64,000 nucleotides of DNA from positions 1,260-65,259 of the forward strand of contig DSCO01000022.1 in the NCBI GenBank assembly GCA_011049045.1. The letters run 5' to 3'. The stretch comes from Methanomicrobia archaeon (GTDB lineage: Archaea > Halobacteriota > Syntropharchaeia > Alkanophagales > Methanospirareceae). The notes under the pieces were generated by a model that did not search any database, was not told where the DNA came from, and was given only the letters and a program-made list of their open reading frames with translations. Of this stretch, positions 3,038-6,797 are shown piece by piece. Each line of letters opens with the position of its first letter. Within the stretch, counting starts at the first letter, position 1. The position numbers were made by a program, and so were the translations under genes.

Positions 3038-3847
3038 TCACGGAAAAAGGATGTCCAGGGGCGGTGGCGTGAAAAAGCCGCGCAGCTCCGCCAGCCGGTA
3101 GAGTTCCGCGTGCGCCCGCACGACGGTTTCGGGCATGTCATAGGTGTATTCATTGACATACATCAAGGCGAACTGCTTCACGAGCGCCGCGTCCGCACCC
3201 CGTGCATACGTCATCGCGTGCTGCATCGCCTCCTCGACATGTTCCAGCGCGTATCGCACACTCGCACGCATGGCGGCCAGAAACGCCTGCTGGGTCTCTT
3301 CGGGGAGCTCCCGCTTGATGACGTTGATCCCGAGCGGCAGCGGCAGCCCTGTTCGCCCGTACCACCACGCCCACAGGTCAAGAACCTTCGCCAGCCCGTG
3401 CTGCGCATAGGTGATCTGCCCCTCATGGATCAGGAGGCCGGCATCGACCTCGCCCCGCGTTACTGCCGGTATGATCTGGTCAAATCGCATCTCCACTGGC
3501 TGGAACTCCGCGAGCGCTAACTTCAGTAACAGGTTCGCGGTGGTATACCGTCCGGGCACGGCTATACGCTTCCCCGCAAGAGCTTGCTCCGATCGTGCGA
3601 CCACTACCGGGCCGTAGCCATCACCCACGCTCGCGCCCGTTGCTAAGATCCGGTACTTCTTGTGCAGAAAGGCGTAGGCGTGCGATGAGAGCGCGGTGAC
3701 GTCCAGTTCACCCGCAAAAGCGCGCTTGTTCAGCGTTTCTATGTCCTCGACCAGCTGCTCTATCTCCAGTCTCGTCTGGATTCTCCCCTGGAAGAGTCCG
3801 TAAAACATGAATGCATCGTCTGCATCGGGCGTATGTGCAACGATCAT
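3038..3847 (-). CDS. mqnD: MqnD-like 1,4-dihydroxy-6-naphthoate synthase (PF02621 MqnA/MqnD family)
   Basis: HTPDADDAFMFY hallmark, GASVGDGYGP; start placed at MIVAH inside the 294-aa track ORF. Confidence 0.6.
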   Translation of the reverse strand: MIVAHTPDADDAFMFYGLFQGRIQTRLEIEQLVEDIETLNKRAFAGELDVTALSSHAYAFLHKKYRILATGASVGDGYGPVVVARSEQALAGKRIAVPGRYTTANLLLKLALAEFQPVEMRFDQIIPAVTRGEVDAGLLIHEGQITYAQHGLAKVLDLWAWWYGRTGLPLPLGINVIKRELPEETQQAFLAAMRASVRYALEHVEEAMQHAMTYARGADAALVKQFALMYVNEYTYDMPETVVRAHAELYRLAELRGFFTPPPLDILFP

Positions 3848-3918
3848 GAATGAGAAATGAGGGAGCGAGCTAAAGAACGTTCTGAATACCGACGAAGCAC
3901 GCTGAGCTTGCTCAGCAG

Positions 3919-4998
3919 TCAAGCAACCAGCTCGTACAGCGTATTCCGCTGCGCTACGGGTCTGCCCACCGACGTCACCGCCCTCCGGATGGCCGCTACG
4001 GTCGCCGGTGTGTGTTCCTTTCCCGCTGCCGTGACCACGTTCTCCTCAAGGATCGTGCCCCCAAAGTCGTTCGCACCGAAGAAGAGCGCGAGCTTGTCGA
4101 CCTCAAAGTCCTGCGTGAGCCACGAAGCCTGGATATTTCGAATGGGATGGAGCACAATGCGCGAGATCGCCAGGACCTGCAAATAGCGCGTTACTGAAAC
4201 CGGCTGCTTCACCCGCTCGTAAAGGGCCGTGTGCTGTGGCTGGAAGGTCCAGGGAATGAATGCCGTGAAGCCGCCCGTTCTCGTCTGCAGATCCCGTATC
4301 GTGAAGAGGTGCTCAATGATCTCAGGGTCACGCTCTATGTGACCGAACATCATAGTTGCAGTTGTGCGCATGCCGATGCTATGCGCGCTCTCCATCACCG
4401 TGAGCCAGTCGTGCGCGCTGAGCTTACCCGGACTGAGTTCGTTACGTACACGGTCACAGAGGATCTCCGCGCCACCGCCCGGGAGCGAATCGAGTCCCGC
4501 AGCTCTGAGCCGTGCGAGCGTCTCCGTTATGCTCAATCCTTCATGCCGCGCGATGAAGGCGATCTCAGGCGGGGAAAGGCTGTGAAGTTGAACGCTCGGG
4601 AAATGCCGTTTTATTTCAGTGAACAACTCTTCGAACCATGCCATGCCGAGTTCCGGGTTGAGGCCGCCTTGCATCAGGATTTGTGTTCCGCCAGCGCGGA
4701 CGGTCTCGGCGACCTTCCGCAGTATTTCAGCGGTGCTCAAGACGTAGCTCTCTTCGTCATGTTTGGCGTAAAAGGCGCAGAATTTACACCGCGCCACGCA
4801 GCGATTGGTATAACTGATGTTCCGGTCAACCACGAACGTTACGAGCTCGCCGCAGCGCTCGTGCCTGATCCGGTCTGCTATGCCGCCCAGAACCGGCAAG
4901 GGCAGCTCAAAGAGCAGCTCCGCGTCCTCAAAGCTCAAATCCTCGCCTGCCAGGTTCCGTGCACCATAGCGCTCCCAGTCAGAGTATCCCGTATTCAT
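3919..4998 (-). CDS. radical SAM enzyme of MqnC/MqnE/CofH family (likely MqnC, dehypoxanthine futalosine cyclase)
   Basis: YTNRCVARCKFCAFY motif; start trimmed to MNTGYSDW to remove overlap with upstream gene. Confidence 0.65.
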   Translation of the reverse strand: MNTGYSDWERYGARNLAGEDLSFEDAELLFELPLPVLGGIADRIRHERCGELVTFVVDRNISYTNRCVARCKFCAFYAKHDEESYVLSTAEILRKVAETVRAGGTQILMQGGLNPELGMAWFEELFTEIKRHFPSVQLHSLSPPEIAFIARHEGLSITETLARLRAAGLDSLPGGGAEILCDRVRNELSPGKLSAHDWLTVMESAHSIGMRTTATMMFGHIERDPEIIEHLFTIRDLQTRTGGFTAFIPWTFQPQHTALYERVKQPVSVTRYLQVLAISRIVLHPIRNIQASWLTQDFEVDKLALFFGANDFGGTILEENVVTAAGKEHTPATVAAIRRAVTSVGRPVAQRNTLYELVA

Positions 4999-5740
4999 GG
5001 CACTTCTCCTCGAAGCGAGCAAGCCCCCGGCGCTCTCGCTCGCCCATCTGGTAGGTGAGCGCGTTAAAATAGCACTCGAGGAACTCTTCGGGCAACCCGA
5101 ACTGCTCATGCGCCGCTCCAATAATCACGTCCACGTGTTCCTTCCCCCACACGACGGATTCCTGAAGGGCTGCGCTCACCCCGGCCATATCACGCCCTTT
5201 CCGCGCTACCGCTATACCGAAGACCATGGGCAAGCCGGTTACATCCAGCCATGCCTCTCCCAGATCCATGACCACCCGGTATCGCTGCCGCGCCCTGATC
5301 GCAGCGTCACCAATGACGAGCGCGTACGGACAGTGCTCCAGTAATGCCGTGGCGGTACTTTCGTTCACGGGCACAATCTGGTGTCTGAGCCCGCGTTCTT
5401 GAAGAATGATCTCCAGCAGCTTGGCTGAGGTGGTGGTCTGGTTCGTCACCGCGATAGAGCCGCCATTCTCTCCTAATGGCGCGCCTTTCGAGACCAGAAT
5501 GACGCTCCAAACACTTCGCGCAGCCGCGATACAGAACTCATAGCGCTGCAGGGTCGCCTTGTTCTTGAGGTAGTAGACCGAAGGGACCGGGCTGAAATCA
5601 ATCTCCCCGCGTTCGAGCATACCAGCGAGCGTCTTCGGCATCGCTCGAATGACGCGGAACCCGTCCTGTTCAAGCCGGTAATAGGGTAAATAGCTGTTCA
5701 GAAGGCTAAACTTGCCGATTCGCTCGCTATCGCTCGTCAT
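4979..5740 (-). CDS. mqnA: MqnA-like chorismate dehydratase (PF02621)
   Basis: IGKFSLLNSYLPYY, GEIDFSPVPSVYY, SVWSVILVS; start at MTSDSERIGK. Confidence 0.6.
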   Translation of the reverse strand: MTSDSERIGKFSLLNSYLPYYRLEQDGFRVIRAMPKTLAGMLERGEIDFSPVPSVYYLKNKATLQRYEFCIAAARSVWSVILVSKGAPLGENGGSIAVTNQTTTSAKLLEIILQERGLRHQIVPVNESTATALLEHCPYALVIGDAAIRARQRYRVVMDLGEAWLDVTGLPMVFGIAVARKGRDMAGVSAALQESVVWGKEHVDVIIGAAHEQFGLPEEFLECYFNALTYQMGERERRGLARFEEKCHEYGIL

Positions 5741-6797
5741 CTGAATGCACCTGTAGTATGTGATAATAAGTATCCCGTTCAGCGGGTATTTTATGTGCAC
5801 CGCGCACAAGGGCCAGAATGGTCTCCTTCGGAAGCCTGAGTGGCGTATGAGCGCCAGCTGCATGCGTAACCCGCTCCTCCATTATCGTGCCGTCCAGATC
5901 GTTCGCTCCATACTGCAATGCAACCTGGGCAAGCTTCTCGCCGAGCGCAACCCAGTACGCTCTGATACTCTTGAAATTCCGCAGCACGATACGGGCAATC
6001 GCAATGGTTCTCAGCACATCGATTGGATCCGTGCGGTCTTCGACGAGCCCCCGTGCCCTGAGTTCCGTGTTCTCCGGATGGAAGAGGAGCGGAACAAAGG
6101 AGATAAAACCGCCGGTCTTTTGTTGCAACGCCCAGAGTTTATAAAGATGAACTGCACGGTCTTTTGGCGTTTCCAGATGTCCAAAGAGCATGGTGGCATT
6201 ACTCCTGAGTCCGATGCGGTGCGCGCGCTCCATAATGCGGAGCCATTCGCCGGCCGCCACCTTCTCAGGGCAGATTGCTGCTCGCAGGGTGTCGTCAAGG
6301 ATCTCCGCGCCACCGCCGGGCAATGCGTCTAGGCCCGCGTCCCTGAGCCGATGGAGCACCTCGTCCACACTCATTCGCTCAAGCTGCGCCAGGTAGTAAA
6401 TCTCCGTCGCCGTCAGCGCCTTGATGACGACGCGGGGAAATCGCCTCTTTATGCGCGTGAACAGTTCCTCAAAGTACGCCACGTTCAGTTCCGGATTGAG
6501 CCCGCCCACGATATGAAGCTCCGTAGCGCCCAGTGTAACGGCTTCTGCTGCTTTCGCCAGTACCTCATCACCACTCATCTGATACGCGTCTGCATCACCT
6601 GCAGCGCGATAAAAGGCACAGAGCGGGCAGCGTGCTGTGCAGATATTCGTGTAGTTGATATGACGATTCACCACGTAGGTAACGAGGTTTCCGTTTCCGC
6701 GATTGATCGCATCAGCACGCGCTCCGAGCTCATGGAGATCACGGTCGAAGAGCGCCGCAATTGCAGCCGGGTTCCAGTCTTCGCTCGGAGCTATCAT
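5727..6797 (-). CDS. radical SAM enzyme of MqnE/MqnC/CofH family (likely MqnE, aminofutalosine synthase)
   Basis: YTNICTARCPLCAFY motif; 14-nt overlap with mqnA-like gene suggests operon. Confidence 0.65.
   Translation of the reverse strand: MIAPSEDWNPAAIAALFDRDLHELGARADAINRGNGNLVTYVVNRHINYTNICTARCPLCAFYRAAGDADAYQMSGDEVLAKAAEAVTLGATELHIVGGLNPELNVAYFEELFTRIKRRFPRVVIKALTATEIYYLAQLERMSVDEVLHRLRDAGLDALPGGGAEILDDTLRAAICPEKVAAGEWLRIMERAHRIGLRSNATMLFGHLETPKDRAVHLYKLWALQQKTGGFISFVPLLFHPENTELRARGLVEDRTDPIDVLRTIAIARIVLRNFKSIRAYWVALGEKLAQVALQYGANDLDGTIMEERVTHAAGAHTPLRLPKETILALVRGAHKIPAERDTYYHILQVHSDDER

Follow-up and report, generated by a model that had tools for sequence, protein, structure and literature searches.

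The window analysed here, a stretch of 64,000 nucleotides, carries four tightly packed genes on its minus strand between positions 3038 and 6797, namely a MqnE-like radical SAM gene, mqnA, mqnC and mqnD. The first gene (5727–6797) encodes an MqnE-like (aminofutalosine synthase-like) radical SAM protein of 356 residues, here called rSAM1, with the cluster motif CTARCPLC at residues 53–60. The start of mqnA (4979–5740), which encodes a chorismate dehydratase of 253 residues, overlaps the stop of rSAM1 by 14 nt. The start of mqnC (3919–4998) in turn overlaps the stop of mqnA by 20 nt; its product, rSAM2, is a radical SAM protein of 359 residues assigned as cyclic dehypoxanthinyl futalosine synthase, with the cluster motif CVARCKFC at residues 67–74. 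A gap of 71 nt separates mqnC from mqnD (3038–3847), which encodes a 1,4-dihydroxy-6-naphthoate synthase of 269 residues. The public gene calls for the contig give identical coordinates for all four genes, and the overlaps of 14 and 20 nt fit the expectation for an operon.

All four open reading frames are intact and full length relative to their profiles, and their GC content (0.58–0.59) is the same as that of the surrounding genome. Read straight from the sequence, a GAGGT lies 5–9 nt upstream of the rSAM1 ATG, and a TATA-box-like element, TTTATAAA, is situated 49–56 nt upstream of it on the minus strand (6846–6853). The TATA-like box falls between rSAM1 and an upstream ABC transporter, for which a functional link to the operon was considered and set aside; its position next to the operon is kept in close relatives only and is not seen in another ANME-1 MAG. 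The order E-A-C(-D) is found again in contigs of Methanophagales, ANME-1 MAGs, Archaeoglobus and Ferroglobus.

Both radical SAM proteins match the Pfam families Radical_SAM and CofH_C. For rSAM2, the MqnC profile ranks far above all others, and the score of 462.2 bits passes the equivalog cut-off of 428.1 bits (TIGR03699) over profile positions 2–341 of 342. Its score with the CofH equivalog (354 bits) stays under the cut-off of 374.1 bits. In a neighbour-joining tree, rSAM2 lies inside the MqnC clade in 198 of 200 bootstraps, and it has 13 of 16 MqnC-specific residues and none of the 13 that are specific for MqnE.

The NCBIfam scores for rSAM1 are 416 bits with MqnE, 403.6 bits with MqnC and 347 bits with CofH, and our home-built HMMs give 400, 373 and 296, so that the margin of MqnE over MqnC is just 12–27 bits. 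By plain pairwise identity, rSAM1 is equally near to MqnC and MqnE. The match to the MqnE profile begins at profile position 18 and falls short of the equivalog cut-off (TIGR03700, 434.55 bits), as do those of all archaeal relatives of rSAM1 (373–424 bits). In contrast, the bacterial MqnE partners in the tree clear this cut-off with 489–525 bits. The only above-threshold match of rSAM1 in the Protein Data Bank is the MqnE from Pedobacter (6xi9, 3e-61).

The neighbour-joining tree, for which taxa were picked by similarity to the MqnC of the window and which contains three CofH sequences, places the archaeal rSAM1 clade (ANME-1 and Archaeoglobi) next to bacterial MqnE as its sister group, with support from 191 of 200 bootstraps. 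The clade groups with MqnC in 9 of the 200 and with CofH in none, and the archaeal and the bacterial clade are each separate in all 200. At discriminating columns, which derive from a limited in-house alignment and are not structure-guided active-site residues, rSAM1 carries 8 of 13 MqnE-specific residues, including four His, Asn, Tyr and Asp, and 2 of 16 MqnC-specific ones. By its sequence, rSAM1 represents a diverged archaeal type that groups with MqnE, not with MqnC or CofH, and the archaeal MqnE-like clade would be expected to have aminofutalosine synthase activity. The sequence-only reading of this DNA had favoured the futalosine route over Fo synthesis and would have been contradicted by a grouping of the radical SAM proteins with CofH or CofG; in the tree they do not group in this way. 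It had also given both of them the motif CxxxCxFCAFY, which is present in rSAM2 (CVARCKFCAFY) and not in rSAM1, where the sequence is CTARCPLCAFY.

The two smaller genes encode members of PF02621 and score well above its cut-off of 26 bits. The mqnA product (192.7 bits) matches the structures of MqnA from Streptomyces (7ahr, 8e-18) and Deinococcus (1e-16), and it is closer to these than to MqnD, as the match to Thermus MqnD has an E value of 2e-4. In MqnA, Asn17 and Ser86 (S. coelicolor numbering) are absolutely conserved, with Tyr242 and Gly151 in addition (PMC9672406). The equivalents of all four are kept in the protein from the window, as Asn15, Ser79, the glycine of GDAA and the tyrosine of ECYF. 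Among the contacts to the benzoate carboxylate, Thr111 and Ser112 are kept, Ser109 is replaced by Thr, and Thr59 is replaced by Pro. The hallmark GEIDFSPVPSVYY proposed earlier for this protein is present, but the second one, IPYLN, is absent; the sequence reads LLNSYLPYY, and its asparagine is catalytic.

The mqnD product (265.1 bits) matches Archaeoglobus AF1704 (1zbm) with 5e-111 and the characterised MqnD from Thermus thermophilus, TTHA1568 (2czl/3a3u), with E = 2.8e-67 across residues 5–265. Its proposed hallmark SPDADDAFMFY holds for PDADDAFMFY, but the preceding residue is a threonine, not a serine. Retention of Mqn-specific features by the PF02621 genes had been set beforehand as a test, and the features are retained: the catalytic residues Asn17, Ser86 and Tyr242 in MqnA, and the proximity of MqnD to the Thermus enzyme. 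The profile scores, the tree, the MqnA residues and the MqnD structure matches thus bear out the earlier view of two futalosine-pathway-like pairings of a radical SAM protein with a PF02621 protein.

As noted earlier from the sequence, there is no mqnB in the window: the Pfam tables list no PNP_UDP_1 (MqnB-type) domain up to about 56.9 kb, and beyond that point PolB is the only protein of more than 170 residues. The window shows no recognisable MqnB/MTAN-type nucleosidase, MqnL, MqnM, MqnP or methyltransferase, a weak MenA-like UbiA protein aside. This UbiA-family prenyltransferase (PF01040), a candidate naphthoate prenyltransferase, is encoded on the plus strand at 53907–54839, 47 kb from the operon, within sequence of lower GC content that follows a tRNA-Glu. 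Its best NCBIfam models are of MenA types, which it matches with 65.8 bits where 277 are required. Homologues in ANME-1 relatives adjoin a UbiB/ABC1 kinase gene, and in some bacteria the homologue carries a fused NAD(P)H quinone reductase domain. The UbiB-like kinase neighbours and the quinone reductase fusions hint at a quinone link for this protein, and a role as naphthoate prenyltransferase is possible. A tRNA attachment-site repeat, sought to delimit an integrated element at 47–64 kb, was not found in the window, and PolB is the only PHROGs match. An amidohydrolase encoded near the cluster in L089 was considered as an aminofutalosine deaminase and rejected, with a score of 100 against 320 for that family; its top models are of the chlorohydrolase and deoxyadenosine-deaminase type.

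The A subunit of the ATP synthase (AtpA) is 85–87% identical to that of ANME-1, and judged by its sequence the host is an ANME-1 (Methanophagales) relative and not strictly a methanogen. It had been described as an archaeon encoding both coenzyme M biosynthesis and Mcr. The first part holds, with a cysteate synthase (586.6, cut-off 324.9), a ComDE alpha domain that clears its cut-off and methanogenesis marker 16 (512, cut-off 364); the second part finds no counterpart, as no mcr gene is present in the window. The ABC ATPase at 45182–46900 stays under the cut-off for component A2, with 276 bits where 517 are needed.

The mqn genes and Fqo have been published for ANME-1 (Timmers et al. 2017, PMC5244752; Chadwick et al. 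2022, PMC9012536), so the association with ANME archaea suggested by the sequence-only reading is already in print. ANME-1 and Methanophagales genomes have the same orthologues, with the MqnE-like protein 69–75% and MqnC 74% identical, in the same E-A-C order, and some of the MAGs share the upstream ABC transporter as well as mqnD and an AhbD-like gene downstream. The window differs in representing another species-level lineage, with a higher GC content (about 0.58) and all four genes contiguous, whereas some ANME-1 contigs have mqnD at another position or parted from the rest by toxin-antitoxin genes. Archaeoglobus fulgidus and the D-E-A-C clusters of Archaeoglobus and Ferroglobus have the archaeal-type MqnE-like clade and adjacent genes as well as the close MqnD match to AF1704, but identity drops to 54–61%, and in Archaeoglobus sp. 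JdFR-41 mqnD is located upstream rather than downstream.

The bacterial pathway of Streptomyces coelicolor, Thermus thermophilus and Helicobacter (MqnA, MqnE, MqnB, MqnC and MqnD) uses the same enzyme families and, by inference, the same chemistry; the catalytic residues of MqnA are kept, and the MqnC of the window clears its equivalog cut-off. The MqnE-like protein of the window, in contrast, scores under the equivalog cut-off and belongs to an archaeal clade of its own, sister to the bacterial one. A futalosine hydrolase is present in a Streptomyces plasmid cluster, whereas the operon described here has no MqnB nearby.

The four genes, in the order mqnE-like, mqnA, mqnC and mqnD, probably form an operon that represents the core of the futalosine pathway in this ANME-1 (Methanophagales) relative. 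In the proposed pathway, MqnA would dehydrate chorismate to 3-enolpyruvyl-benzoate, to which the MqnE-like enzyme would add the 5'-deoxyadenosyl radical of SAM, yielding aminofutalosine. A nucleosidase encoded elsewhere, with or without a deaminase, would then remove the base to give dehypoxanthinyl futalosine. MqnC would cyclise this intermediate, and MqnD would release 1,4-dihydroxy-6-naphthoate. Prenylation, decarboxylation and methylation by the products of genes outside the operon would lead to a menaquinone-type membrane electron carrier; the identity of these missing steps and of the final quinone is what we infer. In the literature, a carrier of this type is proposed to accept the electrons from the Fqo-type F420H2 dehydrogenase in ANME-1. 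Because of PhzF homologues, Timmers et al. do not settle which compound the carrier is (PMC5244752), and the ANME-1 papers cited here do not report that a quinone was detected chemically. The archaeal mqn gene set of the operon is also present in Archaeoglobus fulgidus. This archaeon contains menaquinone.

An alternative is that 1,4-dihydroxy-6-naphthoate is made but ends up in a modified naphthoquinone of lower potential or in a soluble naphthoate shuttle, or that a variant MqnE-like reaction bypasses MqnB. The distinctness of the archaeal rSAM1 clade from all bacterial MqnE proteins and its scores below the equivalog cut-off are in line with this, as is the atypical family to which the only UbiA gene of the window belongs. 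Menaquinone would also have an energetically awkward potential for passing electrons from ANME-1 to the partner (Chadwick et al., PMC9012536). MqnB is absent from the window tables, and Timmers et al. list no futalosine hydrolase domain for ANME-1 (PMC5244752); the archaeal MqnE-like clade, from ANME-1 and Archaeoglobi, is found in genomes that lack a recognisable futalosine hydrolase. However, the retained MqnE-specific residues of rSAM1 give no sign of a different chemistry. The same archaeal gene set is present in Archaeoglobus, a menaquinone maker, and mqnB is often missing because other nucleosidases can take its place, for example in Helicobacter and Campylobacter. We regard this alternative as unlikely. 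There is a somewhat smaller chance that the archaeal MqnE-like clade runs a variant early step, or that the ANME-1 pathway ends in a modified naphthoquinone of lower potential. If true, either would ease the energetics of electron transfer from ANME-1 to the sulfate-reducing partner.

It is very improbable that the four genes have no function in this host, whether as a remnant or as a cassette acquired by recent transfer. In favour of this reading, the MqnC clade of these archaea branches within bacterial sequences in the neighbour-joining tree, and the window does not show the remaining pathway steps. Against it stand the four intact reading frames and a GC content like that of their surroundings. 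The orthologues across ANME-1 are 70–75% identical, compared with 85–87% for AtpA; this divergence in step with housekeeping genes, together with the kept gene order, points to long vertical retention under selection.

It is hardly credible that rSAM1 and rSAM2 are CofH/CofG-type enzymes making the F420 chromophore Fo, with the PF02621 genes as unrelated neighbours. Public records do label near homologues of rSAM1 as 'CofH family radical SAM protein' or 'FO synthase subunit 2', and rSAM1 reaches 420 bits with TIGR00423, a subfamily model of the CofH family. The proteins of the window also have the radical SAM fold, the CxxxCxxC motif and the CofH_C domain in common with the Fo synthase. However, rSAM1 stays under both CofH equivalog cut-offs (347 against 374.1 and 336 against 426 bits), the CofH clade is separate, and no residue pattern at the discriminating columns is common to rSAM1 and CofH. 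In addition, the radical SAM genes are interleaved and overlapping with mqnA and mqnD, an arrangement that archaea of different orders have kept. Models for CofG reach 37–53 bits, and the earlier statement that no CofG-type partner is present in the window is correct. We reject the Fo synthase reading on the HMM scores, the tree and the discriminating residues together.

The futalosine reading is right but not new, because the genes of ANME-1, Syntrophoarchaeum and Methanoperedens have already been published (2017, 2022 and 2024). The observation is thus real but ordinary, since an mqn core operon was already reported for the ANME-1 lineage, and the window adds one further genome with this operon. 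For annotation, the first radical SAM gene (rSAM1), to which public records frequently give the name 'FO synthase subunit 2' or 'CofH family', groups with MqnE. The redox potential at which the electrons from methane oxidation can be passed on depends on the membrane carrier, and the use of a quinone by ANME-1 therefore matters to the energetics of the anaerobic oxidation of methane.

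As the sequence-only reading had proposed, the window contains a set of four futalosine-type genes; all lie on the minus strand. They encode a radical SAM protein of 356 residues (rSAM1, 5727-6797), a PF02621 protein of 253 residues (4979-5740), a second radical SAM protein of 359 residues (rSAM2, 3919-4998) and a second PF02621 protein of 269 residues (3038-3847). The same four coordinates are found in the gene calls of a public metagenome contig that includes the window (ENA ERZ27245514 k141_4001). The first two genes overlap by 14 nt and the second and third by 20 nt, and a gap of 71 nt precedes the fourth. 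A TTTATAAA element is situated 49-56 nt upstream of the rSAM1 ATG, the first of the operon, a T-run lies downstream of the last gene, and the GC content of the operon is that of the DNA around it. The motifs originally read from the sequence are mostly right, but with three slips: the 269-residue protein contains TPDADDAFMFY rather than SPDADDAFMFY, the IPYLN claimed for the 253-residue protein is absent and the sequence there is LLNSYLPYY, and CxxxCxFCAFY occurs in rSAM2 only, with CTARCPLCAFY in rSAM1.

Three of the proteins can be assigned directly. With 462.2 bits against the MqnC equivalog model, rSAM2 clears the cut-off (428.1). The 269-residue protein matches the characterised MqnD of Thermus thermophilus (Protein Data Bank codes 2czl and 3a3u) with an E-value of 2.8e-67, and its match to AF1704 of Archaeoglobus has one of 5e-111. 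The 253-residue protein matches the chorismate dehydratase MqnA of Streptomyces coelicolor at 8e-18, and MqnD at just 2e-4. In MqnA, Asn17 and Ser86 are absolutely conserved and needed for function, and Tyr242 and Gly151 make further contacts (PMC9672406); when aligned to the Streptomyces enzyme, the 253-residue protein retains the equivalents of all four. Of the contacts to the benzoate carboxylate, Thr111 and Ser112 are retained, Ser109 is replaced by Thr, and Thr59 by Pro.

rSAM1 is the uncertain one among the four proteins. Its profile scores are 416 bits for MqnE (cut-off 434.55), 403.6 for MqnC and 347 for CofH (cut-off 374.1). The sole above-threshold structural match of rSAM1 is Pedobacter MqnE (Protein Data Bank code 6xi9), with 211 bits; rSAM2 scores 186.5 bits on the same chain. 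A neighbour-joining tree (CofH root, 200 bootstraps) was calculated from 126 homologues in the 80 loci found with MqnC, the annotated MqnE and MqnC from a Streptomyces plasmid, and CofH of Thermomicrobium, Leisingera and Haloterrigena. rSAM2 falls inside the MqnC clade (198/200). rSAM1 falls in an archaeal clade with L002, the Methanophagales locus L003, Archaeoglobus L006, L007 and Ferroglobus L008, which is sister to the clade containing Streptomyces MqnE. The archaeal and bacterial MqnE groups join in 191 of 200 replicates, whereas archaeal rSAM1 joins MqnC in 9 and CofH in none.

Residues nearly fixed in bacterial MqnE or MqnC, and missing in the other and in CofH, give the same picture: rSAM1 has 8 of 13 MqnE-specific and 2 of 16 MqnC-specific states, and rSAM2 has 0 of 13 and 13 of 16. 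On profiles made from the bacterial sequences, rSAM1 reaches 400 for MqnE, 373 for MqnC and 296 for CofH; the corresponding values of rSAM2 are 299, 470 and 300. As these columns and profiles agree with the tree, an MqnE-type assignment of rSAM1 is supported, with a modest margin and a neighbour-joining tree drawn from a biased taxon set. Within the MqnE clade, the bacterial proteins score 489-525 bits, above the MqnE cut-off, but all archaeal members score below it (373-424 bits), which explains why public records name the latter variously as "CofH family," "FO synthase subunit 2," or "aminodeoxyfutalosine synthase."

The order mqnE-mqnA-mqnC is found in L002 (91-94% identical), the Methanophagales genome L003, contigs L089 and L090, and the ANME-1 genome L088. 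It is kept in L007 and Ferroglobus; Archaeoglobus has mqnD-mqnE-mqnA-mqnC, and in many Desulfobacterota mqnE adjoins mqnC with mqnA close by. Directly upstream of the operon, also on the minus strand, is a NitT/TauT-type ABC transporter (6958-9366), with its SsuA/NMT1-like binding protein at 8419-9366, its ATPase at 7668-8408 and its permease at 6958-7710. The transporter is present in the same order in L002, L003 and L089/L090 but missing from L088, and its association with the operon was therefore treated as shared ancestry rather than as a component of the system. The AhbD/NirJ2-like radical SAM gene downstream is likewise retained in the closest relatives.

This gene (1819-2925), which comes after mqnD in relatives as well, is one of two AhbD/NirJ2-like radical SAM/SPASM genes; the other lies on the contig just beyond the window (L001 14880-16202) and is preceded by a 50-residue open reading frame. 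They score 290 and 277 bits (cut-off 500), and between them lie a gene for a protein disulfide oxidoreductase (1026-1667) and one resembling thioredoxin reductase (122-1018). The set could serve alternative heme synthesis or peptide maturation.

The Pfam tables of the contig, which reach to about 56.9 kb of the window, contain no PNP_UDP_1-type hydrolase, in agreement with the earlier statement that mqnB is absent from the window, and no UbiD/UbiX pair or UbiE-type methyltransferase. The UbiA prenyltransferase gene (53907-54839), put forward as a menA candidate, belongs to a small family (151 matches at E <= 1e-10); its best models are indeed MenA types, but the scores are far under the cut-off. 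In ANME-1 relatives, the homologue adjoins a UbiB/ABC1-type kinase and TspO (L092 10001-11870, where it is duplicated; L093 8001-8933), and the homologues of Geothrix and Halomonas carry a fused NAD(P)H quinone reductase-like domain. This context is suggestive but not decisive. The gene lies past a tRNA-Glu in a lower-GC stretch with PolB and many unassigned small open reading frames. From tRNA-Glu(CTC) (47029-47103) onward, about 17 kb have a GC content of 0.47-0.53 compared with about 0.58. In this stretch (47029-64000), numerous small open reading frames have no family match, and repeated sequences lie upstream of several HTH_5 regulator genes. It also encodes a Rad51/KaiC-like ATPase at 55477-56268 and, at 56545-58773, a family B DNA polymerase. 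The stretch may represent a genomic island or an integrated element, although the window yielded no att repeat for it.

The A subunit of the A-type ATP synthase is 85-87% identical to proteins of ANME-1 GoMg4, Methanospirareceae and Methanophagales, compared with 72-75% for Syntrophoarchaeum and Alkanophagales. Identity to the Methanophagales counterparts is 69-75% for the MqnE-like and MqnC proteins. The description of the host as CoM/Mcr-encoding holds for CoM biosynthesis: methanogenesis marker 16 (at 25975-27252), cysteate synthase (at 24679-25962) and a ComDE fusion for sulfopyruvate decarboxylase (at 23403-24542) each score at or above cut-off. The window contains no mcr gene, however. 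After the CoM cluster, the next genes on that strand encode an ABC transporter of the SsuA-family sulfonate type (20672-23242), and cluster and transporter together span 20672-27252. A protein with two ABC ATPase domains (45182-46900) has Mcr component A2 as its best NCBIfam match, but its 276 bits fall below the cut-off of 517, and it does not count as Mcr evidence. In the Pfam table, HypA-like (37846-38253) and ParA/CbiA-type (37081-37830) genes adjoin a tungsten-type aldehyde:ferredoxin oxidoreductase (about 38782-40557).

ANME-1 were previously reported to carry gene domains for the futalosine pathway (Timmers et al. 2017, PMC5244752). Table 2 of that study lists MqnC and PF02621-type domains for ANME-1 and an additional count under "FO synthase subunit 2," whereas signatures of MqnE and of futalosine hydrolase are absent. 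The lack of MqnE together with the additional count is precisely the result expected of an MqnE-like protein that scores below threshold. Futalosine homologues together with Fqo led to the proposal of a quinone carrier in ANME-1 (Chadwick et al. 2022, PMC9012536), and mqnABCDEX was described in Ca. Syntrophoarchaeum with reference to Methanoperedenaceae and ANME-1 (2024, PMC11543930). Given these three publications, the feature is already known for the order of the host, and this study adds just a further genome and places the MqnE-like gene more clearly. The futalosine-route reading is supported, and the genes point to the standard core of that route, in which MqnE is of the archaeal type.
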